A DNA stretch of 32,000 nt, taken from NCBI RefSeq assembly GCF_000189295.2, contig NC_016803.1, forward strand, positions 1,950,001-1,982,000, given 5' to 3'. The notes under the pieces are model-generated. The model was given only the letters and a program-made list of their open reading frames with translations. It was not told the DNA's origin and ran no database searches. Both the position numbers and the translations under genes were made by a program. The stretch is from Pseudodesulfovibrio mercurii (GTDB taxonomy: Bacteria; Desulfobacterota; Desulfovibrionia; Desulfovibrionales; Desulfovibrionaceae). Positions 12,934 through 30,419 of the stretch are shown here, one piece after another; the stretch's first letter is position 1; each line of letters starts with the position of its first letter.

Positions 12934-13902
12934 TCACTTGGTTCGGGTCAACACAAAATCCGCGGCCTGCTTGAGCACGGTCAGTTCCCCGCCGGGCTCG
13001 TAGCCGTCCAGGCACGCCTTGGCCTTTTCAATATACCGGGCGGCCTCCTCGCGGGTCTTCTCCGAATAGCCGCCCTCCCGGACCTGCTCCAGGACGTCGC
13101 GGCTCTGGGCCTCGCTCAGGGAGCCGTCCCGCAGGGCCTCCAGCAGGACCTCGGCCCCGGCCTCGTCGCCCTCCTCCATGAGCAGGATGAGCGGCAGGGT
13201 GACCTTGCCCTCCTTGAGATCGCCGCCCTCGGGCTTGCCCGTCTCGGACGTGGGCGAGGCATAGTCCAGGGCGTCGTCCACCAGCTGGAAGGCGATGCCC
13301 ACGTTCAGGCCGAACTCGCCCGCCGCGTCCTCCTGCTCCGGGGTGGCCCCGGCCAGGGCCGCGCCGCACCGGCAGGCGCACTCGATGAGCCGCGCGGTCT
13401 TGCCGACGATGATGCGCATGTAGGTCTCGCGGTTCAGCGACGGGGCGCGCGAAAATTCGATCTCCTCGATCTCGCCCGTGGCCGTCTCCATGATGCCCTT
13501 GGCCAGCAGCCAGGACAGCCGGGGATTGCCGTAGCGCGCGCCCATCTCGTTGGCCAGGGCGAGCAGGGCGTCGCCCGCCAGGATGGTCTCGGTCCGGCCG
13601 AAGACCAGATGGGACGCGGCCCTGCCGCGCCGAAGCTCGGCGTCGTCCAGGTAGTCGTCGTGCAGCAGGGTGGCGGAGTGGAGCAGCTCCAGGGCGCAGG
13701 CGATGGCCAGGTAGTCGTCCTTGGCATAGCCCAGCGCCCGGGCGAACAGGAGCGTGAACAGGGGCCGGATGCGCTTGCCGCCGGACCCGAGGATGTGCTT
13801 GGCGACGTCCCGGACCAGACCGTTCAGCTGATCGGCTTCACGGTCGAGAAAGTCATTGATTCCGGGAAGTTCCCGTTGAAAATAGCGCAGAAGTTCGTCC
13901 AT
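12934..13902 (-). CDS. Polyprenyl diphosphate synthase (trans-IPPS; menaquinone side-chain type)
   Basis: First and second aspartate-rich motifs are LLHDDYLDD and FQLVDDALD. GKRIRP lies near the N terminus. Confidence 0.88.
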   Translation of the reverse strand: MDELLRYFQRELPGINDFLDREADQLNGLVRDVAKHILGSGGKRIRPLFTLLFARALGYAKDDYLAIACALELLHSATLLHDDYLDDAELRRGRAASHLVFGRTETILAGDALLALANEMGARYGNPRLSWLLAKGIMETATGEIEEIEFSRAPSLNRETYMRIIVGKTARLIECACRCGAALAGATPEQEDAAGEFGLNVGIAFQLVDDALDYASPTSETGKPEGGDLKEGKVTLPLILLMEEGDEAGAEVLLEALRDGSLSEAQSRDVLEQVREGGYSEKTREEAARYIEKAKACLDGYEPGGELTVLKQAADFVLTRTK

Positions 13903-16285: not shown

Positions 16286-17161
16286 CTAGCCCTTTTTCGC
16301 CTGCCCGGTCCCGGCGGCCTTCGAGGCGCCTTTCTTCGGGGACGCCCCTTGCGGGGCCTCCGGCGCGGCGGGTTCCGCTTCGGGGGCCGGTTCCGGCACG
16401 GACCCGGTCCGCTCGCCGCCCGGCTTCTCGGCCACGTGCAGGTAGACGATGCCGGACATCATGGGCACGTTGTAGACCCGCTCGAAGCCCGCTTCAAGCA
16501 GTTCCATGCCCAGGGCCCGTTCGTCGGGAAAACTCTTGATGGTCTCGGCCAGGTAGCGGTACGCGCCCGGATCGCCGGAGATGCGGTCCCCGAGGAACGG
16601 CAGGACCTTGTCCAGGTAGAAGTTGTACAGCCCCTTCCAGACCTTTTTCGAGCCGGTGCCGAACTCCAGGATGCACAGCCGCGCGCCGGGCTTGAGGACC
16701 CGCAGGAACTCGGCGTAGGCCTCCGCGCGGGGCAGGATGTTGCGGATGCCGAAGGCGATGGTGGCCGCGGCCATGCACTCGTCGGGCAGGGGCAGGTTGC
16801 GGCCGTCCGCCTGGACCGGGAAGATGCGCTCCTCGCGCCCGTTCTTCAGCTTCTTGGCCTTGCCGTTCTCGAGCATGGGCAGGGTGAAGTCCAGGGCCGC
16901 CACCTTGCAGTCCGGGTACTGCCGGAGCAGCTCCACGGACACGTCCATGGTCCCGGCGGCCAGGTCCAGGACCATGCCGCCCGGCTCGGGACGGGCCGCC
17001 CGGACCAGCCGGTAGCGCCAGTAGATGTCCTGGCCCCCGGACAGGGCGTGGTTGAGAAAGTCGTACCACCCGGCGATGCGGCCGAACATGTCCGCCACCC
17101 GCCTGCCGTGCTCGGCGGGGGTGGAGGCCCCGGTTTGGGACGCGCATTCGGGGCGGGCCAT
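16286..17161 (-). CDS. ubiE: Demethylmenaquinone/ubiquinone methyltransferase UbiE/MenG with Pro/Ala/Lys-rich C-terminal tail
   Basis: VADMFGRIAGWYDFLNHALSGGQDIYWR and the SAM motif VLDLAAGT are present, as is FGIRN. An extension of about 48 aa (PEPAPEAEPAAPEAP...KKG) follows the methyltransferase fold. Confidence 0.85.
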   Translation of the reverse strand: MARPECASQTGASTPAEHGRRVADMFGRIAGWYDFLNHALSGGQDIYWRYRLVRAARPEPGGMVLDLAAGTMDVSVELLRQYPDCKVAALDFTLPMLENGKAKKLKNGREERIFPVQADGRNLPLPDECMAAATIAFGIRNILPRAEAYAEFLRVLKPGARLCILEFGTGSKKVWKGLYNFYLDKVLPFLGDRISGDPGAYRYLAETIKSFPDERALGMELLEAGFERVYNVPMMSGIVYLHVAEKPGGERTGSVPEPAPEAEPAAPEAPQGASPKKGASKAAGTGQAKKG

Positions 17162-19912: not shown

Positions 19913-22459
<2,547 letters not shown>

Positions 22460-22643
22460 GTATGGGTTCTCCAGAAAATCTTTGGCGGCCGGGGAGAGCG
22501 CGGCCGCGAACGCTGTAGTGCAAGATAACGTCGGGGAGGGGAAAGTCAACGCGACAATCGCGTGACAAAGCCCCTTTTCGCCCGGCGCGAACAGGGATAG
22601 CACAAACCGGGTCGGGCGTAAAAGGGCCGGTCCGGGCGGGAAA

Positions 22644-23449
22644 TCAGGCCGGGCGGTCGCCGTCCACCACGGACGCGGCCCCGCGCAGGCGCACGTACCA
22701 GGCAGCGCCCACGGCCCAACCCAGGACGGACACGCCGCACTGGACCGGAAGATGGAGCCACCGGGCATAGAATTCGGTGACCGGGCTCATGGGAGCCGCG
22801 GTGTGCGGGATATCCATGGGCAGCCGCCGGGCCGCCCACCACAGCAGCGCCGTCAGGAACAACGTCCCGGCGACCGGGCGCGACAATGCCCAGGAGCGCC
22901 GAAAGGACACGCGGTCCCCCACGGCCGCGCCCGCCAGGGTGAACCCGAAGCGGACGAGCAGGTGCAGCAGCGGCATGGCCGCCAGGTGGTAGGAGGCGGC
23001 CCAAAGCGGATAGACGTTCATGTCGAACAATGGCCCGGCCAGCCACTGCACACCCCGGCCGAGCAGTCCCCAGGCCTGGTCGAAGCAGAGATAATAACAG
23101 AAGGCGTAGGGCAGCGCCCGCAGGAACCGACGCGAAAAGTCCGGACAAAAAAACCGACGCTCCCCCTCCCCGTGCAGCACGGCGTTCGCCACGACCACGA
23201 GCAGGCCCAGGTGCAGCAACATCCTCAGTATGGACCACGACCGGCCGCCACGGAGAGCGGAACCCCGGTCATTCGCTCCAACGGCACCAGCTTGAAGGCG
23301 AGCGCCCACAGGTACAGACACGCGGCGCTCACGGCATAGAACGACGGGTCGGCCCGCAACCGTCCCGCAACCATGCAAAGGACCCCGCCGATCCGCCCCA
23401 GGGACGCCCGCCAGGCATCCTCGGCCTGCAGAAACCAGGGGATGGACAC
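22644..23449 (-). pseudogene. Membrane-protein paralog P4, apparently disrupted by a 1-nt frame change (or sequence error)
   Basis: The N-terminal third (GTG 23449; SIPWFLQAEDAWRASLG...) is in the frame of ORF 23225..23506. The rest (SILRMLLHLG...[11 protein letters not shown]) is in the frame of ORF 22644..23378. Both parts align with P1-P3. Confidence 0.6.
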
Positions 23450-23453
23450 GGGC

Positions 23454-24231
23454 TCAACCCCCTTCCGCCGGACTCGACGCCGCGTCTTCGCGGACCGCGA
23501 TGGCATACCACACGACCGTCAGGGCAAAGAGCGGCGGGACGAACAGGGAGGTCAGCAGGGAGAGGGCCACGGTCCAGGCCAGGGGGCCGGGGGAGGCGAA
23601 CCACTGCGCCATGCCCCAGTCCAGCCCCGCCAGCGGGGCGAAGGGCGCCCCCAGGAGAAGCAGCCCGGACAGCAGCATGGCCAGGCCCCGCCCATGAGTC
23701 AGCCGGAAGGACCGTTCGAGCGGCGACTTGCGCCCGTCCACCACGGCGGCCGGGACCAGAATGAGGCGCAGGGCCAGCCAGACGGCGGGCAGGCAGGACA
23801 CGGCCGTGACCACCAGGCGCGTCCCGAACCCCACGTCGGCAAGGGGCGTGTCCAGGAACATCCCCAGGACCGCCATGCCCGCGAGGGTCAGAATGACGGC
23901 GAAGACGCCCACCAGGGCGAAGACCGCCGCCGAGTACAGCCCGTACAACAGGAACTTTTTTCAGGAACGCCCGCGGCAGACGGCGGGCGTCGCCCTCCCC
24001 GTGCAGCAGGGCGTGCAGGAGGGCCACCTCCACCGGTATGAGCAGGATGGAAAAGGGCAGGCCGTACACGAACCATTCCAGCAGGTCGGCATCGGGCCGC
24101 AGCCAGTCGAGGGAGTCCCGGACCAGGCCGATGGCGGCCAGAAGGAGAAACGGGACGAGCAGCAGCCGCCGGCGTTCGGCGAGGAGCGTGAGGGCGCGTC
24201 GCGCCGCGACCCACGGGGACGGATTCGTCAC
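23454..24231 (-). pseudogene. Membrane-protein paralog P3, frame change inside an A6 tract (or sequence error / +1 slippage)
   Basis: The N-terminal 89 codons (GTG 24231; MTNPSPWVAARRAL...RLPRAFLKK) then turn into Arg/Pro/Gly-rich nonsense. The +1 frame continues as FLLYGLYSAAVF...VVWYAIAVRE (ORF 23454..23948). The junction is the T6 run at 23956-23961 on the plus strand. Confidence 0.65.
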
Positions 24232-24234
24232 CGC

Positions 24235-25146
24235 CTACCTGTCCTCCGGCAGGTCCGCGTACGGCCCCACGCCCGCTCCGCGCGCCGGGCCGGGGGCGGT
24301 TCCGGGCTCGGCGGAGAACCGGAATGCGGCCCCGGAACCGACGCCCGGTGCGGCCGCGCGCAGGCGGAGCTTCTCGTACCAGACCGCGTTCATGACCAGC
24401 AGGACGATCCAGGAGAACAGGTCGAGGACCAGCAGGACCAGGAACGACACGGCGGTCCCCGCGCCGATCCCCCCGCCCCCGTCCTTCATGGCGGAACCGA
24501 TGACGGCGACCTCGAAGAGCCCGGTCAGGATCATGACCGGCAGGACCACGGTCAGCATGGACCAGAACATACGCCAGGCGTGGCCCCTGGTCAGGGCCAG
24601 GGCCTCGCGCACCCCAACCACGTGGCCCACGGCCGCGCCGGGGATCATGACCATGAGCCGCAGGATCAGGCCGACGACGAAGGCATAGACCACGACCCCC
24701 GCGACCATGAACAGCGCGAGCAGGGACGGGTTGAACCCGGCCGGATCGGCGGGATCGTGGGGCAGGACCGCATAGGCCACGGCCGCCAGCGGCACCCCGA
24801 CCGCGAGCATGACGCCGAACATGACGGCCACGATGATCAGGCCACGGACAAAGACGCGGCCCATGGCGGGCCAGAAGGGTTGCGGCAGGACCGTGCCCGC
24901 CCCCCGCTGCATGGTCACGGCCAGGTGGTTGGACGCGGTCATCAGGAAGAGCGTGACCAGGACGTGAAGGACCACGGACAGCGCCACGGCCGGGCCGTAC
25001 CAGGAACGCGCCAGCGCGGGCAGGACCGTGACCGTCGGCAGGAGCACCAGGCTGACCAGGAGCAGTCCGAGGAACGCCCATTTCCGCCTCCAGCTCAGGG
25101 CCACGGACTCCCTGACCACGGCCCACGGCGAGATCTTGTTCGACAT
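24235..25146 (-). CDS. Membrane-protein paralog P2 (six predicted TM segments, unassigned family)
   Basis: ATG at 25146 has GGAGGA upstream and lies 2 nt after the P1 stop. The product starts MSNKISPWAVV, contains ALTRGHAWRMFW and ends near WYEKLRLRAA. The longer listed ORF (to 25605) overlaps P1 and is Arg/Gly-rich there. Confidence 0.75.
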   Translation of the reverse strand: MSNKISPWAVVRESVALSWRRKWAFLGLLLVSLVLLPTVTVLPALARSWYGPAVALSVVLHVLVTLFLMTASNHLAVTMQRGAGTVLPQPFWPAMGRVFVRGLIIVAVMFGVMLAVGVPLAAVAYAVLPHDPADPAGFNPSLLALFMVAGVVVYAFVVGLILRLMVMIPGAAVGHVVGVREALALTRGHAWRMFWSMLTVVLPVMILTGLFEVAVIGSAMKDGGGGIGAGTAVSFLVLLVLDLFSWIVLLVMNAVWYEKLRLRAAAPGVGSGAAFRFSAEPGTAPGPARGAGVGPYADLPEDR

Positions 25147-25148
25147 GT

Positions 25149-25958
25149 CTATTCCTCCCCGGCGGTCTGTTGTTGCGCGTCCGTCGGCGTCCCGGCGGCG
25201 CGCAGGCGGAGCTTCTCGTACCAGATGATGAAGGCCGCGAAGGTGAACCACATCACGGCCGTGCCCGCGACCATGAACCCCAGGTTCGCGGGCGAGAATG
25301 GATCGAAGGTCCGGGCCTCCACGGCCGGGCCGTTGACGACCTGCATGGCCCCATTCAGGAGGAGGAACGGCAGGGTGAACAGGAGCATCCGCAGGGAATG
25401 GCCCCGGGTCATGCGCCAGGAGAGCCGGAAGGAGGACTCGTCGCCCATGACCGTTGCGGGCAGAACCGGCCACCAGCGCACCGAGAAAAAGGCCAGGGGC
25501 AGCATGACCGCCGCCACGGTGAGCAGGGTCATGGCGAAGGACGGCTCCGCCCCTTCCGGCGCAGGCCACAGGATGACCACCGCCGCCACCATGACGACCC
25601 CGCACAGCATGCCCGCCCCCATGACCATGAACATCAGCAGGAACCCCCGGCCCAGAAAGCGCAGGTACCGGCCGAGGAAATGGTCGGGCAACAGGCCGGG
25701 GCGTTCGCGCAGGGCCGACAGGGAGTCGTGCAGCACCACCACGTACACGGCCGCCCCCGCCAGCAGGGAGAGGAGCCAGACCGTCAGGGTGAGCCCGTTG
25801 AACGGTTGGGCGGGATCCACGGAACCGGAAAGATAGATCGAGGGCGCCCCGGCCGCGAGCACGCCCAGCGCCCCGCCCAGATAGACCCGCCCGCGCAACC
25901 GCATGAGCCGCAGGGCGTCCACGGCCACTTCCAGGGGCGATATCCTGTCTCCCGCCAC
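25149..25958 (-). CDS. Membrane-protein paralog P1 (six predicted TM segments, unassigned family)
   Basis: GTG at 25958 lies 6 nt after the Fe-S subunit stop, with AAGGTAGG upstream. The product starts MAGDRISPLEV, contains LSWRMTRGHSLRMLLF and ends near WYEKLRLRAA. Confidence 0.75.
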   Translation of the reverse strand: MAGDRISPLEVAVDALRLMRLRGRVYLGGALGVLAAGAPSIYLSGSVDPAQPFNGLTLTVWLLSLLAGAAVYVVVLHDSLSALRERPGLLPDHFLGRYLRFLGRGFLLMFMVMGAGMLCGVVMVAAVVILWPAPEGAEPSFAMTLLTVAAVMLPLAFFSVRWWPVLPATVMGDESSFRLSWRMTRGHSLRMLLFTLPFLLLNGAMQVVNGPAVEARTFDPFSPANLGFMVAGTAVMWFTFAAFIIWYEKLRLRAAGTPTDAQQQTAGEE

Positions 25959-25964
25959 AAGTAC

Positions 25965-27107
25965 CTACCTTATGGTTTCAAGCCAGTGGCCCACCTCCAC
26001 GCGGTCCGGGGCCGTGGCCGAGAGCTGGGCCAGACAGGCGGAGCAGCCCGAGAGGACCACGTCCGCACCCTTGAGCGCCTCCCAGCAGGCGCGGTTGACC
26101 GGTTCGGTCAGGCCGGGCGCGGCCAGGCGCATGACCCCGCCGAAGCCGCAGCACTGCTCGTCCGTAACCCTGACCAGCCGGTCGCCCAGGAGCGCCCGGA
26201 GCCAGGTCCGGTCCGGGTCGTCCTTGCCCGCGTGGCACGGGTGGTGGTAGCCGAGCCGGTCCGGTGCATTGTCGGATATCATAAATTCTATGCCCCGTAC
26301 AGCCACCGACAAGGGCAAAAGCGCCTGGTTCCACTGCGCCTTTTCCCCGTCGGACTCGAAGGCGTCGTAGGCCCGCAGCCCGGCCAGGCAGGAGGCGCAG
26401 AACACGGCCACGCGCGGCCGCCCGGCCTCGCGCCAGACCGCCACGTTGCGCCGGGCCATCTCCCCGGCCTCGTCCGCGAACCCGGCCCCCTTCAGCCCCG
26501 AGCCGCAGCAGGCGAAGTCGCCGGGCAGGACGTCCGCGCCCAGGCCGTCCAGCAGCCGCAGGGCGGCCGTGAGCCAGCGGCCCTGCACGTAGTTGGCCGT
26601 GCAGCCCGCGAACAGGAGCATGCGTTCGCCGCGCCAGTCGTCGGGGAAGGCCCTGGGCGTGAGGAAGGGATCGAGGCCCGGCCCGCCGGTCATGCCCGCG
26701 AGCATCTTGAGCATGGGCCCGAGCTTCTCGGTGCGGAACCGCTCGGGGATGAGCGCGGCGGCCTTGGAGCTGGGCGACCAGAGCTGGCGGGCGCGGGTCA
26801 GCCAGGTCTTCCACAGCCAGGACTTGAAATTCGGGTGCGCACCGCGCAGGGCGGCCACCAGGCCGGGCACGTCCTGACCCTGGGAGCAGACCTCGCGGCA
26901 CCGGCCGCAGCCCAGGCAGAGCCCGGCCAGCCGGGCGGCGTCGGTCTCGGACAGCTTGTCCGGGTCCTCGGCCAGGACCCGGCAGAGGTCGGACTTGGAA
27001 CGCGGCCCGAGTTCCTCGCGGCCCGTGGCCTTGAGCAGCGGGCAGGCCTGGAGGCACTTGCCGCACAGGATGCAGTGGGAGACGTGTTCGGAAACGGGGT
27101 CGGCCAT
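25965..27107 (-). CDS. (Fe-S)-binding oxidoreductase subunit, GlcF-like (two 4Fe-4S motifs plus CCG domains)
   Basis: Ferredoxin-type motifs are CILCGKCLQACP and CLGCGRCREVC. Cysteine-rich CCG-type segments are CCGSG, HHPCH and EQCCGFGG. The start lies 7 nt after the GlcD-like stop. Confidence 0.85.
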   Translation of the reverse strand: MADPVSEHVSHCILCGKCLQACPLLKATGREELGPRSKSDLCRVLAEDPDKLSETDAARLAGLCLGCGRCREVCSQGQDVPGLVAALRGAHPNFKSWLWKTWLTRARQLWSPSSKAAALIPERFRTEKLGPMLKMLAGMTGGPGLDPFLTPRAFPDDWRGERMLLFAGCTANYVQGRWLTAALRLLDGLGADVLPGDFACCGSGLKGAGFADEAGEMARRNVAVWREAGRPRVAVFCASCLAGLRAYDAFESDGEKAQWNQALLPLSVAVRGIEFMISDNAPDRLGYHHPCHAGKDDPDRTWLRALLGDRLVRVTDEQCCGFGGVMRLAAPGLTEPVNRACWEALKGADVVLSGCSACLAQLSATAPDRVEVGHWLETIR

Positions 27108-27114
27108 GGTCCGC

Positions 27115-28503
27115 CTACCACCCCTTACCGGGGTTCATGATCTCGTGGGGGTCGAAGACGCGGCGCACGGTCTCCATGAAATGGAGCTGGTCCGCGCCGA
27201 GCTGCTCGGGCACGAAGGAGGCCTTGGTCAGGCCGGTGCCGTGCTCGCCCGAGATGGTCCCGCCCAGTTCCACGGCGGCCCGGAAGAGCCGCTCCTTGAC
27301 CTGGTGGGCGGCGCGGACCTCCTCGGGGTGGGCCGCGTCGTGCATGATGTTGGTGTGGATGTTGCCGTCGCCCAGGTGGCCGTAGCAGAGCACGGGCAGC
27401 CCGGCGTCGGCCCCGGCCTTTTGGGCGATGCGCACCAGCTCGGGCACGCGGCCGCGCGGCACGGCCAGGTCCTCGGAAAGCTTGTCGGGCCGGAGCCGGT
27501 AGGAGCCGGGCGAGATGTCCCGGCGGGCGGCCCAGACCGCTTCCTCGGCCTCGCCCTCGCCCACCTCCAGGGAGACCGGCCCCACGGCCGCAAGCGCCGC
27601 CTCGAGCCGTCGGATCTCGGCGGCCACGCCCTCGGCCGTGCCGTCGAACTTGAAGAGCAGCGCGGCCTGGGCCTGCGGGGCCAGGGGGATGTCGCCGCCC
27701 AGGCGCACGGCCTTGATGGTGGTCACGTCCATGAACTCGCAGGCGCAGGGCAGGAGCCCGGCCCCGAAGACGGCCATGGCCCCGTTCATGGCCCCGTCCA
27801 GGTCGGCGAAGCCCACCAGCACGGAGCTGGAGGTCTCGGGCAGGGGGATGAGCTTGACCGTGGCCCGGGTGATCAGGCCGAGCTTGCCGTCCGCGCCGAC
27901 AAAAAGGCGCTTCAGGTCCAGGCCGACCACGTCCTTCTGGGCCCGGCCGCCCATGGTCAGGACCTTGCCGCCGGGGAGCACGGCCTCGATGCCCAGGACC
28001 CAGTCGCGGGTCACGCCGTACTTAACGGCCCGCAGCCCGCCCGCGCAGGTGGAGATGTTCCCGCCCATGGTGGAGATCTTCACGCTGGCCGGGTCCGGGG
28101 GATAGAAGAGCTTCTTCGCGGCGCATGCCTGCTGGAAGTCCGCCGTGATCACGCCGGGCTCCACCTCGGCGGCGAAGTCGCGTTCGCTGATGTCGAGGAT
28201 GCGGTTCATGCGTAGCAGGGACACGGTCACGCCGTGCAGGAGCGGCACGGTGTTGCCCACCTGCCCGGTGGCCCGTGCGCGCGGATAGAGCGGCATGCGC
28301 TCGGCGTCGGCCCAGCGCAGGAGTTCGGCCGCCTGGTCCCGGCTCTCGGGCCGGACCACGGCCCAGGGCATGGACCGCTCGCGGCTCGCGTCCGTGGAAA
28401 AGGCGTTCATTTCCTCGGTGTCGAGGACGCACCCGTCGCCGGGGAAGAGATCGGTCAGGAACGCCCGGTGGGCGTCTGTCAGGGAGGTGGCGTAATTCGG
28501 CAT
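27115..28503 (-). CDS. glcD: FAD-linked oxidase, GlcD-type (probable D-lactate dehydrogenase)
   Basis: FAD-binding PCMH domain shows PWAVVRPES...PRARATGQVGNTVP. The C-terminal oxidase domain shows GTISGEHGTGLTK and FDPHEIMNPGK. Pairing with a GlcF-like Fe-S subunit matches the Desulfovibrio Dld-II arrangement. Confidence 0.88.
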   Translation of the reverse strand: MPNYATSLTDAHRAFLTDLFPGDGCVLDTEEMNAFSTDASRERSMPWAVVRPESRDQAAELLRWADAERMPLYPRARATGQVGNTVPLLHGVTVSLLRMNRILDISERDFAAEVEPGVITADFQQACAAKKLFYPPDPASVKISTMGGNISTCAGGLRAVKYGVTRDWVLGIEAVLPGGKVLTMGGRAQKDVVGLDLKRLFVGADGKLGLITRATVKLIPLPETSSSVLVGFADLDGAMNGAMAVFGAGLLPCACEFMDVTTIKAVRLGGDIPLAPQAQAALLFKFDGTAEGVAAEIRRLEAALAAVGPVSLEVGEGEAEEAVWAARRDISPGSYRLRPDKLSEDLAVPRGRVPELVRIAQKAGADAGLPVLCYGHLGDGNIHTNIMHDAAHPEEVRAAHQVKERLFRAAVELGGTISGEHGTGLTKASFVPEQLGADQLHFMETVRRVFDPHEIMNPGKGW

Positions 28504-28509
28504 GCGCCG

Positions 28510-28538
28510 AGCCTACGAGTACGATTATCGAGTGTCAA
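28510..28538 (-). promoter_or_regulatory. Possible sigma70 promoter placed so that the glcD mRNA would be leaderless
   Basis: The minus strand has TTGACA (28538-28533), a 17-nt spacer and TAGGCT (28515-28510). Six nt then precede the ATG at 28503, and there is no Shine-Dalgarno sequence. Confidence 0.3.
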
Positions 28539-28563
28539 TGACATGAGAGGCGGGATGGGGGAT

Positions 28564-28666
28564 GGAGCCTGCGGCTCCGCGCTGAAGAGCGCGCCTGCGG
28601 CGCGGAGAGCCGGGATGGAGCTGCGCTCCTCCCTCCGAGAGCCAGCGAGGCGGTTGCACCGCCTCG
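28564..28666. repeat. Cluster of four short GC-rich hairpins, all with a TGC triloop
   Basis: GGAGCC-TGC-GGCTCC (28564-28578), CGCGCC-TGC-GGCGCG (28590-28604), GGAGC-TGC-GCTCC (28617-28629), CGAGGCGGT-TGC-ACCGCCTCG (28646-28666). Confidence 0.8.
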
Positions 28667-28980
28667 GCTTCCATGCCCTCCCGGCGGGGTCCATTTTTTT
28701 GCTGGCCCAAAAAAATAGACGAAAAAAAGGGCCTTGCGGGGGGAGCGGCCGCCCGGGGAGGGGGCGCAAGAATCCGATCCGCTCGGGGCGGCTCCATCTG
28801 AGCAAAAGTATAGTGCGACTCCCGGAGCGGAATGCCCCCTTTTGGGAAAGACCGAGCCTCGAAGGGACAAGAGCCGCCACCCCTTCGCGGTCGGCTTCTA
28901 CGCGCCCCCTCCAGGGCTGTGACGGTGCGGTGAAGAGGTGCGGGGGGGGACGCGGCGGGGCGTGCGTTTTGGTGGGGCCG

Positions 28981-29011
28981 AGAGCCGCTGTCGGGTGCCG
29001 GGGGCACCCGA
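28981..29011 (-). repeat. Inverted copy of the hairpin+CAGCGGCTCT module seen at 3334-3362
   Basis: Minus strand reads TCGGGTGCC-CCC-GGCACCCGA-CAGCGGCTCT. The arms and the 10-nt tail match the 3.3-kb locus. Confidence 0.8.
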
Positions 29012-29297
29012 GTCGCTCCAGTGGGTGCGAGTTGGGGGAGTGTGGGCTTGGGGATGGGGGTTGAAGGCGGGAGTTTGCGTTGGGAGAGCCATGAAAGGGA
29101 AGGAAATGTGGGGGCTCCTACACCTCCCGCGACGCGTTTCTCCTGAGTCCCCAATTTTTCCCAGGGCCGCCGCCAAGGCGGTCCGCCACCCCCCTGTCGC
29201 GAGTGCGGCCAAACCCGCTGTGCTCTTTTCAAGCCCGTCTACAGACGAGGCCCCCCAACCTCCACCGCGCGAGCGCGGCCCAATTTTTCTCACCCCG

Positions 29298-29593
29298 CCT
29301 CTTCGTGCCCGGCCATTCGTCCCGGCCCACTCCCCACACCCGAAGAGCGGTAGTCGGCGGCGGACCCTAGAGCCCGTGTTCGGCGGCGAAAGCGCGGGTT
29401 TGAGCGCGTCTGCGCAGCAGACATTCGCTCACAACCAGCGAAAGCCGCCTACGGGCTCTTGGGTCCGTCGGCGGGCGGCAGCACCGAAGCGCAGTTTTTG
29501 CTTCCTTTTTTCTGCGCCGGCAAAAAGGAAGTCGCCGTAAAGGCGAAATACGATGTGAGGATGACAGTCCTCAGCTCCGACGCGGATGCGCGG
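29298..29593. repeat. Tandem direct repeat, copy A (about 296 bp), non-coding
   Basis: It aligns by eye with 29686-29982, with about 20 differences including one 1-nt indel. It contains a 105-nt rod hairpin (29362-29466) and the hairpin CTTCCTTTTT...AAAAAGGAAG. Confidence 0.9.
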
Positions 29594-29685
29594 ATAAATC
29601 CAAGGAGTCTCTCCCTCCCAGGCCCGCCGCAGGGCGATCCACTACAACACCGCCGCGCAAGCGCGGACAACTTCTCGACTTCAGA

Positions 29686-29982
29686 CCTCTTCGTACCCGG
29701 CCATCCGCTCCGGCCCACTCCTCGCACCCGAAGAGCGGTAATGGGCGGCGGACCCTAGAGCCCGTGTTCGGCGGCGAAAGCGCGGGTTTGAGCGCGTCTG
29801 CGCGGCAGACATTCGCTCACAACCAGCGAAAGCCGCCTACGGGCTCTTGGGTCCGTCGACGCGCGGCAGCACCGCAGCGCAGTTTTTGCTTCCTTTTTTC
29901 TGCGCCAGCAAAAAAGGAAGTCGCCGTAAGGGCGAAATACGATGTAGGGATGACAGTCATCAGCCCCCACGCGGATGCGCGG
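29686..29982. repeat. Tandem direct repeat, copy B (about 297 bp), non-coding
   Basis: It starts 388 bp after copy A. The rod hairpin is at 29750-29854. The ~92-bp spacer (29594-29685) resembles the sequence preceding copy A more loosely. Confidence 0.9.
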
Positions 29983-30009
29983 CCATATTCAAGCGCCCCA
30001 CTTCTTCAT

Positions 30010-30043
30010 AAAAAAGGGCCGCTCCCCGGCAGGGGAACGGCCC
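30010..30043 (-). terminator. Rho-independent terminator downstream of the 117-aa gene
   Basis: Minus strand reads GGGCCGTTCCCC-TGCC-GGGGAGCGGCCC (one mismatch) followed by T6. Confidence 0.8.
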
Positions 30044-30065
30044 TTCACCTCTTCAAACGAAGGGA

Positions 30066-30419
30066 CTAGGCCTCCAGTTCCTTCATCAACCACTCCTTGA
30101 TGGGCGGGGTCAACTCGAGGATGCCCTTGATGCCCTTGATGTCTTCGAGCAGCTGCTTGGCCAGGTCCTCGGGAATCTTCTTGGAACACAGGATGGTCGA
30201 TCCGTAGTTGTCCATGCGCATGAGCACCACCTTGGGCTCACCCCAGGTGTCCATGGCGAAATATACCGAATATTCCCCGGACGTGGTCACCGGCGAACGC
30301 ATGGCGTCGCGATAGTTGTTGTTGCCCCATTCCAGGTACAGGGTGACGGCATCCTCGTGGATCATGTCCCAGTTCACTTCGTTCAGCCACTGCCTGCATG
30401 CGTTGGTGTCGTCGCTCAT
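30066..30419 (-). CDS. Hypothetical 117-aa cytoplasmic protein
   Basis: A clean ORF with GGAGGA 4 nt upstream of the ATG, its own promoter and its own terminator. Composition is coding-like but slightly less GC-rich than the neighbours. I do not recognise the family. Confidence 0.7.
   Translation of the reverse strand: MSDDTNACRQWLNEVNWDMIHEDAVTLYLEWGNNNYRDAMRSPVTTSGEYSVYFAMDTWGEPKVVLMRMDNYGSTILCSKKIPEDLAKQLLEDIKGIKGILELTPPIKEWLMKELEA

Follow-up and report, generated by a model that had tools for sequence, protein, structure and literature searches.

In Pseudodesulfovibrio mercurii ND132, a 32,000-nucleotide (nt) stretch of the chromosome (NC_016803.1, positions 1,950,001 to 1,982,000; hereafter the window, numbered from its first letter) carries on its minus strand four tandem genes for putative membrane proteins, P1 to P4 (22644 to 25958). 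They lie directly downstream of the genes for a GlcD-like flavin adenine dinucleotide (FAD)-linked oxidase subunit and an iron-sulfur (Fe-S) subunit. Profile comparison assigns all four to one family, whose members (here termed M) occupy the same place beside the Fe-S gene in the relatives sampled and are conserved almost only in segments predicted to face the cytoplasm. It is quite possible, if short of probable, that the M proteins serve as accessory docking subunits, devoid of heme, by which the Fe-S subunit is kept at the membrane. The neighboring enzyme is of the type assigned to pyridoxal phosphate (PLP) synthesis, and not the D-lactate dehydrogenase that had been assumed.

P1 to P4 as one membrane protein family

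P1 (25149 to 25958; DND132_1778 exactly) is an intact gene with a GTG start that encodes 269 amino acids (aa), and P2 (24235 to 25146; DND132_1777), the type most widely kept in relatives, is an intact gene encoding 303 aa. P3 (23454 to 24231) and P4 (22644 to 23449) each carry one frameshift and would encode 258 and 268 aa once repaired. The open reading frames of the locus correspond to DND132_1774 to DND132_1780. The motifs that the original prediction had listed for these genes were all present, namely SPL, SPW or IPW; VVLH, ALLH or AVLH; LPDHF, LPQPF or LPRAF; and SWRMTRGH or SFRLTHGR. The sequence WYEKLRLRAA, said to be identical in P1 and P2, is so, and the encoding DNA is identical at 32 of 33 positions (24351-24383 versus 25193-25225).

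P1 and P2 are 27% identical (BLASTP E value of 2.5e-5, at a nominal database size of 1e6), and P3 and P4, when compared with P1 or P2 by pairwise BLAST, gave marginal E values of about 1 to 10 at the same nominal size. A family hidden Markov model (HMM) was built from 51 members, with P1 and P2 included and P3 and P4 excluded. This model matched both the N-terminal and the C-terminal fragments of P3 (E values of 2.3e-8 and 2.4e-19), the C-terminal fragment of P4 (1.9e-24) and the intact P4 orthologs found elsewhere (2e-25 to 2e-37). Because a profile made without P3 or P4 recognizes both of them, all four genes are assigned to one family, and by this sequence measure the similarity among them exceeds chance.

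Hydropathy analysis combined with the positive-inside rule predicted six transmembrane (TM) helices in each of P1 to P3. The description of four paralogous six-TM genes therefore stands as regards the common family and the helices of P1 to P3, but only P1 and P2 are intact, and P4 is less hydrophobic, with three segments above the threshold. In P1, the sum of Lys and Arg residues was 5, 5, 5 and 3 in the even loops and 0, 0 and 1 in the odd loops, and both termini are therefore predicted to be cytoplasmic. An AlphaFold2 model of P2, with a predicted local distance difference test (pLDDT) score of 89.8 and a predicted template-modeling score (pTM) of 0.84, exhibited six long helices together with short cytoplasmic ones. 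Family members measure 254 to 304 aa and have no domain besides the membrane one; greater lengths occur only in tandem M-M fusions, such natural two-domain proteins being P0016 (an in-frame fusion of P1 and P2), P0017, P0022 and P0023.

Conservation on the cytoplasmic face and in the Fe-S subunit

Across 75 members, 27 positions were conserved in at least 60% of the sequences. Twenty-six of these were located in predicted cytoplasmic segments, one (P119) in a helix and none in a periplasmic segment (Fisher P value of 6e-11). R163, R81, Y257 and L260 were invariant or nearly so, and the partly conserved residues His74 (72%) and His189 (64%) were also on the cytoplasmic side. The TM helices were the most variable part of the proteins, and no polar, membrane-embedded residue was found among the 27 positions. 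This pattern therefore argues against a heme-binding or substrate-translocating core and for a binding surface that faces the cytoplasm. A redox subunit binding heme b or quinone was considered and rejected, since no polar or histidine residue is conserved within the membrane. The transport role that had also been raised for the array is disfavored on the same grounds.

The Fe-S subunit (25965 to 27107, minus strand; DND132_1779) contains two [4Fe-4S] motifs and two CCG domains (Pfam Fer4_8 and CCG). Its AlphaFold2 model (pLDDT of 92.2) was matched by Foldseek to LutA, to Mycobacterium smegmatis EtfD and to HdrB. Residues 92 to 150 comprise a three-helix, Trp-rich segment (FKSWLWKTWL) which, judging from the model, could lie on the membrane surface. 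Relative to the rest of the protein, this segment was more conserved in all 13 of the M-bearing loci (ratio of 1.03 to 1.26) and less conserved in all three of the M-less loci (0.78, 0.85 and 0.46). Such a pattern would be expected of a contact surface, in a sample that is small and confounded by phylogeny.

A conserved slot between the Fe-S gene and secA

Twelve independent loci with family members were examined, from close relatives down to an E value of 1e-10. In all 12, the Fe-S gene, one to four M genes and secA were found in this order on one strand, with GlcD directly before the Fe-S gene except in L001, L008 and L015. Eight of eight look-ups of members sampled to the same limit led to this slot and nowhere else, and the synteny with glcD and the Fe-S gene on which the original prediction depended thus held in every member sampled. 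GlcD and the Fe-S gene have two unrelated genes between them in L008 and L015, and in the metagenomic locus L001 an aminotransferase gene, not GlcD, precedes the Fe-S gene; in each case the M genes remain with the Fe-S gene. The inserted genes encode rhodanese-like and C_GCAxxG-like proteins in L008 (5837-6986) and SatD and DUF3307 proteins in L015 (1590-3069), and the two enzyme subunit genes are accordingly not always adjacent in relatives.

Across the 10 loci measured, the distance between the Fe-S gene and the first M gene was 6, 6, 6, 14, 21, -11, 22, 6, 6 and 6 nt, and a Shine-Dalgarno-like AGG or GAGG overlaps the Fe-S stop codon. The distance from the last M gene to secA was 183 to 209 nt in eight of nine measurable loci and 9 nt in L013. 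The minus-strand order in ND132 is GlcD, Fe-S, P1, P2, P3, P4, a 184-nt spacer and secA. The four junctions read TAG-6 nt-GTG from Fe-S to P1, TAG-2 nt-ATG from P1 to P2, TAG-3 nt-GTG from P2 to P3 and TGA-4 nt-GTG from P3 to P4, and at the Fe-S/P1 and P2/P3 junctions the stop codon is inside an AGGTAGG string; position, strand, order, junctions and both strings were exactly as first described. A promoter scan gave no match between the Fe-S gene and P4, no convincing terminator was seen within the array, and the number of terminator-like hits was at chance level (7, versus 4.1 +/- 2.6 expected). The family genes are probably co-operonic and translationally coupled with the CCG/Fe-S subunit gene, in line with the tightly packed unit that had been proposed.

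At six of the loci, the first membrane gene continues in the reading frame of the Fe-S gene, with only TAG plus 6 nt between the two. These are ND132 (25959-25967), L003, L004, L008, L015 and L018, and the junction has the form AGG TAG GTA xxx ATG/GTG. Read-through of the TAG would yield an Fe-S-membrane fusion resembling the layout of EtfD; no such fusion protein was present among the best 150 database hits.

The number of M genes varied between loci. One copy was found in L009, L010/11 and L018/19, and one copy plus a 45-aa P4 remnant in L004-7. Two copies were present in L003, L012 and L013, and two copies plus a 63-aa remnant in L001 (3126-3317), the remnant comprising the last helix and ending in WYEKLR. 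Desulfovibrio caledoniensis (L008) and L017 have three copies, and L015 has four intact copies (272, 297, 264 and 267 aa) in the ND132 order. A locus scan of the P2-type alignment returned one genome locus and three metagenome loci. Word-index homolog searches were insensitive here, P1 alone returning itself and one relative and the family profile returning 19. In an unfiltered HMM scan, neither M genes nor remnants of them were found in the Fe-S/secA slot of P. tunisiensis, D. aminophilus or Maridesulfovibrio hydrothermalis. The interval between DVU0826 and secA in Desulfovibrio vulgaris presumably holds no such gene either.

P0140, a more remote member of the superfamily that matches the family profile at an E value of 8e-8, is encoded downstream of a SUKH/SMI1_KNR4 immunity-type gene (L020 55-2193), a context unrelated to the dehydrogenase. 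Because of this context, the tight family is taken to end at an E value of about 1e-10. The family is largely restricted to Pseudodesulfovibrio.

Frameshifts, divergence and copy dynamics

The P3 reading frame was restored by the removal of one A at the A6 homopolymer run CTGAAAAAAGTT (23956-23961, minus strand), and that of P4 by a one-base repair near position 23242, which gave a product 57 to 68% identical to the intact orthologs in L003, L008 and L015. In the deposited annotation, P3 is represented only by its C-terminal 164 aa (DND132_1776), with nothing for the N terminus, and P4 is split into DND132_1775 (74 aa) and DND132_1774 (192 aa). Orthologs were about equally similar on the two sides of each lesion (56% and 53% identity for P3, 58% and 69% for P4), and the omega values of the repaired P3 and P4 genes were the same as that of the intact P2. 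Each gene is therefore considered to carry either a single recent lesion or an error of sequencing. Real lesions are weakly favored, in that Logan assemblies are flagged as containing the 164-aa and 74-aa fragments. A programmed frameshift at the A6 run of P3 was considered and rejected: it would need a +1 shift, a TGA is immediately upstream in the +1 frame, and six A's are short for transcriptional slippage.

Between ND132 and L008/L015, identity was 85 to 87% for the Fe-S subunit, 67 to 68% for P4, 53 to 56% for P2 and 25 to 27% for P1 (43% to L001); for P3, compared only with the intact L015 ortholog, it was 54%. By the Nei-Gojobori method, omega was 0.44 to 0.69 for the M genes versus 0.15 to 0.32 for GlcD, Fe-S and SecA. 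The M genes are under purifying but relaxed selection.

Since orthologs of the P2, P3 and P4 types are present in other genomes and L015 keeps a set of four in the same order, the array results from an old expansion, as had been proposed from the divergence of the copies. The 669-bp deletion of P4 in L004-7 is located between short direct repeats (L004 near 10100). The C-terminal DNA shared by P1 and P2 is a plausible substrate for deletions, remnants and fusions, suggesting that local gene conversion and unequal recombination drive the changes in copy number.

The neighboring enzyme

The GlcD-like subunit (27115 to 28503, minus strand; DND132_1780, UniProt F0JFZ0) contains the Pfam domains FAD_binding_4 and FAD-oxidase_C. 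In a published subgroup listing, F0JFZ0 is placed under "Predicted B6 synthesis, DVU0827" and not under "Predicted D-lactate catabolism, DVU3027" (Table S9, PMC9997740). Randomly barcoded transposon sequencing (RB-TnSeq) of D. vulgaris Hildenborough had shown that DVU0826:DVU0827 is needed for PLP synthesis, with pdxA co-fitness values of 0.81 and 0.84, and the pair was proposed to be a novel 4-phosphoerythronate dehydrogenase (PMC10102598). The mutants required pyridoxine and had no D- or L-lactate phenotype; the B6 requirement and the co-fitness with pdxA and pdxJ were shown for D. vulgaris Hildenborough and Miyazaki F only. By Pfam content and subgroup listing, the two-gene architecture of this enzyme type, GlcD plus CCG/Fe-S, is present here as well. 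The ND132 pair is of the DVU0826:DVU0827 type, which published genetics assigns to PLP synthesis, and not the D-lactate dehydrogenase of the luo operon, and the D-lactate dehydrogenase label given to these genes in the original prediction is not supported. The papers that could be searched made no mention of a membrane partner for enzymes of the DVU0826/27 type.

The aminotransferase gene noted above in L001 (156-1280) is of class I/II (PF00155) and overlaps the start of the Fe-S gene. The same arrangement is present in P. tunisiensis (L024 4776-6038), where glcD is about 4 kb away. Since the enzyme is assigned to vitamin B6 synthesis, this aminotransferase could supply the transaminase activity (SerC/PdxF role) that the pathway is missing.

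Proposed role and competing explanations

We tentatively propose that the M proteins dock the Fe-S subunit at the membrane, a role to which we give a little less than an even chance. The variable helices would serve only to embed the M protein in the membrane, and the conserved cytoplasmic face would bind the Fe-S subunit, whose helical segment 92-150 is the probable point of contact. Four elements would make up this face: the amphipathic helix at the N terminus, the H..T..RG....P and R..PGAAVG...S..AW.MTRGH..RM loops, which follow TM2 and TM4, respectively, and the WYEKLR helix at the C terminus. The enzyme would thus be held at the membrane, where its clusters could pass electrons to menaquinone, and the M proteins themselves would have no cofactor. 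We infer both the physical contact between M and the Fe-S subunit and the link to menaquinone. The paralogs would probably assemble together, given that natural M-M fusions exist, and would be partly redundant. Docking by partly redundant paralogs would explain both the range of zero to four copies and the tolerance of ND132 for two frameshifted ones. A more far-reaching version, for which we see rather less chance than not, is that M represents a new type of cofactor-less integral membrane subunit of CCG/Fe-S dehydrogenases, docking the FAD/Fe-S enzyme of the PLP pathway by its conserved cytoplasmic face so that a biosynthetic oxidation feeds the menaquinone pool, with interchangeable and hetero-oligomeric paralogs.

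Several observations weigh against a docking role. The three M-less relatives keep the enzyme genes, and the B6 phenotype was defined in D. vulgaris, which presumably lacks M as well; this indicates that the enzyme does not need M. The slot takes unrelated insertions elsewhere (SIMPL in L022, and rhodanese or SatD genes between GlcD and Fe-S), and position alone could reflect a permissive site. The non-synonymous divergence of the M genes is 4 to 6 times that of the Fe-S gene. Within one species, P2 of L003 has a 1-nt insertion and P4 of L004-7 has the 669-bp deletion; losses and frameshifts within a species, together with fast evolution, are unusual for a subunit with a fixed interface. Finally, the covariation of Fe-S segment 92-150 with the presence of M depends on three M-less genomes that are also the most diverged. 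Of the membrane module tied to an enzyme that had been proposed, the conserved place beside GlcD/Fe-S remains, but the enzyme is a different one and the module is not obligatory, being missing from three relatives and lost or broken within species.

Much of the same evidence suits the main rival to the docking proposal, namely, that the M genes are co-transcribed passengers in a permissive slot, having an independent membrane function (envelope, stress or immunity-like) and no tie to the dehydrogenase. The copy numbers of zero to four, the remnants, the internal deletion of 669 bp and the frameshifts within species would all be expected of passengers, as would an omega of about 0.5, a non-synonymous rate 4 to 6 times that of the neighbors and the unrelated insertions in the same region of other lineages. 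That P0140 (E value of 8e-8) has a SUKH-type immunity gene as its neighbor, in unrelated surroundings, points the same way. Passengers would, however, not be expected to occupy a single slot in all sampled members to an E value of 1e-10 (eight of eight look-ups), nor would the first copy be expected to start in every case at most 22 nt from the Fe-S stop codon, a ribosome-binding motif overlapping this codon. The M genes also remain with Fe-S where GlcD is displaced, and the conservation of Fe-S residues 92-150 follows the presence of M. We regard this explanation as doubtful, though it deserves serious weight.

It appears improbable that M acts as a channel or transporter, be it of a B6 vitamer, of an intermediate of the pathway or of the enzyme's substrate. 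Vitamin transporters often cluster with biosynthesis genes, and B6 transporters are described as unidentified in many bacteria (PMC9997740). The six helices and the conserved residues R81, R163 and R263 would also fit, as would a structural similarity to CysZ and choline-transporter-like proteins that is faint and not significant. Against this, only one of the 27 conserved positions is in a helix, none is a polar residue embedded in the membrane, and variability is highest in the helices; no transporter fold was matched significantly (best E value of 0.38, template-modeling score of at most 0.49), and multiple fast-diverging, dispensable paralogs are atypical of a vitamin carrier.

In the lactate version, M would anchor a D-lactate dehydrogenase of lactate utilization to the membrane or serve it as a transport partner. 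This version is largely refuted by the published genetics and is very improbable. It drew on the Dld-II architecture of GlcD plus CCG Fe-S, on the former listing of DVU0826-27 as a Dld-II paralog and on the membrane association of Desulfovibrio lactate dehydrogenase activity (PMC4481167). The grouping of F0JFZ0 with DVU0827 and not DVU3027 (PMC9997740) is against it, and beside the pair no gene of the lactate pathway (por, pta, ack, lactate permease or lldEFG) was identified, in a scan whose open reading frames from 1 to 12 kb gave almost no Pfam hits.

A Sec-related function with the adjacent secA is scarcely credible: secA is the invariable same-strand downstream neighbor, but it is set apart by the spacer of 183 to 209 nt in eight of nine measurable loci and by a promoter-like site common to ND132 and L008, the Fe-S/secA adjacency also occurs without the M family, and no similarity to SecYEG, SecDF or YidC was observed.

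Family assignment

When 1.84 billion representatives were searched exhaustively with a profile, there were 649 matches at an E value of 1e-3 or lower, 86 at 1e-10 or lower and 20 at 1e-30 or lower, counted as cluster representatives. The best Pfam hit was GPDPase_memb (PF10110), at 18.3 bits for P1 and 20.6 bits for P0002, below the cut-off of 29.6 bits. Weak hits to this model were found in 6 of the 51 members (best E value of 2.6e-5) and none in P2, P3 or P4, and no glycerophosphodiester phosphodiesterase (GDPD) catalytic domain was fused to family members. DUF975 (PF06161; cut-off of 34.8 bits) was not reached, with 7.2 bits for P2 (E value of 5.5) and weak hits in 2 of the 51 members. Nor was DUF7847 (PF25231; cut-off of 28.7 bits), with 14.3 bits for P0002 (E value of 0.025) and no hit for P1 or P2; a precomputed sequence-collection table tags P1 as DUF7847, unlike the direct scan. 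Sub-threshold Pfam traces also led to DUF996, DUF4013 and DUF7544, a scan of the family against NCBIfam gave nothing, and the UniRef name of P2 is taken from GPDPase_memb.

When the P2 model was compared with the viral predicted-structure library BFVD, the top match was a DUF975 protein (probability of 0.99, template-modeling score TMt of 0.57, E value of 0.17, root mean square deviation of 7.7). Against the Protein Data Bank (PDB), Foldseek returned nothing significant for this model (best E value of 0.38, template-modeling score of at most 0.49), and a sequence-profile search of the PDB with the family found no significant relative. The family is thus without a curated model; its placement as a distant branch in the GPDPase_memb/DUF975/DUF7847 fold group is reasonable, although the score tests failed. 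The earlier guess of an unassigned family resembling GPDPase_memb and DUF975 coincides with the only weak hits found. Literature searches gave nothing useful on the functions of DUF975 or GPDPase_memb and no paper mentioning DND132_1777 to DND132_1780.

Transcription signals and other features of the region

Downstream of the array, secA (19913 to 22459, minus strand) is the neighbor conserved in all related loci. The 184-nt spacer before it contains a sigma-70-like promoter match (TTGACT, 16 nt, TATCTT; 22522 to 22549, minus strand), which is conserved in L008 within a nearly identical stretch. This promoter-like site marks the 3' boundary of the array unit, and on account of the match and its conservation, secA probably has its own start site.

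Upstream of glcD, two tandem non-coding elements of about 345 nt (29262-29604 and 29650-29993) were observed, 88 to 90% identical and spaced at 388 nt, each with a 30-nt inverted repeat inside it. No further copy was present in the window, and the element matched no Rfam family, the only hit being a chance microRNA match at an E value of 0.059. An Rfam search at gathering score over 22300-30300 found no family.

Besides secA, the genes identified nearby encode a UbiE-type methyltransferase, a UDP-glucose dehydrogenase, a polyprenyl synthetase and CinA. The polyprenyl synthetase and UbiE/COQ5-type methyltransferase genes are a few kilobases past secA (12934-13902 and 16286-17161, minus strand). 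Both are plausible menaquinone synthesis genes, and the methyltransferase gene is near secA in L003-L005 as well; the proximity may be coincidental.

Implications

In the more far-reaching version of the docking proposal, M would be the first member of the GPDPase_memb/DUF975/DUF7847 fold group with a function, as an enzyme-docking platform. Docking, if true, would give a first functional context to a large set of membrane families known only as "domain of unknown function." It would also bear on where the DVU0826:DVU0827-type enzyme is located and what accepts its electrons, since menaquinone would be indicated by a membrane partner dedicated to it; this enzyme has been proposed as the step missing from vitamin B6 synthesis in sulfate reducers. 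ND132, a model for mercury methylation, is genetically tractable. The present assignment also corrects a mis-annotation that is easily made, in that a lactate dehydrogenase should not be assumed wherever GlcD and Fe-S genes are paired in Desulfovibrionaceae. The general importance is moderate, because the family is confined to one genus-level lineage, dispensable and fast-evolving.

Comparison with known systems

One parallel is the EtfD of M. smegmatis, in which five helices that carry a menaquinone site and a heme b with two histidine ligands are fused to the same CCG module (PMC13083937). The model of the Fe-S subunit can be superposed on the EtfD structure 9ojn, its second hit (about 450 columns, E value of 1.7e-8, template-modeling score TMq of 0.58), and also on HdrB. 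EtfD and, by the same logic, HdrED and DsrMK join a module of two [4Fe-4S] and two CCG motifs to a membrane part that reduces or oxidizes menaquinone, and whereas such membrane parts are encoded next to the CCG protein or fused with it, the M genes are likewise directly downstream of the CCG gene (12 loci; gaps ranging from -11 to 22 nt where measured, in 10 of them). Unlike EtfD, M has six helices with no conserved intramembrane histidine or polar residue, 9ojn is not among the hits listed for the P2 model, and the M genes are separate and dispensable.

A second parallel is GPDPase_memb itself. According to the Pfam description, the membrane domain of PF10110 proteins anchors a fused soluble enzyme, which is the role proposed for M; M differs in having no fused GDPD domain, and its partner would be a separate Fe-S protein. 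DUF975, DUF7847, DUF996, DUF4013 and DUF7544 are uncharacterized multi-pass families whose hits to M are weak and below the cut-offs, and a literature search gave no known function or link to a dehydrogenase for them.

In Escherichia coli, the CCG subunits GlpC (of GlpABC) and GlcF (of GlcDEF) are membrane-associated and are not known to have an integral partner. The Fe-S subunit described here is distantly similar to them by NCBIfam and has its own Trp-rich helical segment. GlpC and GlcF are not known to have a dedicated downstream membrane gene, whereas most Pseudodesulfovibrio loci have one to four. Of the same enzyme type is DVU0826:DVU0827 of D. vulgaris Hildenborough, the proposed replacement of PdxB/PdxR, which belongs to the same subgroup and has the same two-gene architecture; published accounts of it mention no membrane partner, and relative to this two-gene enzyme the M array is an addition of Pseudodesulfovibrio.

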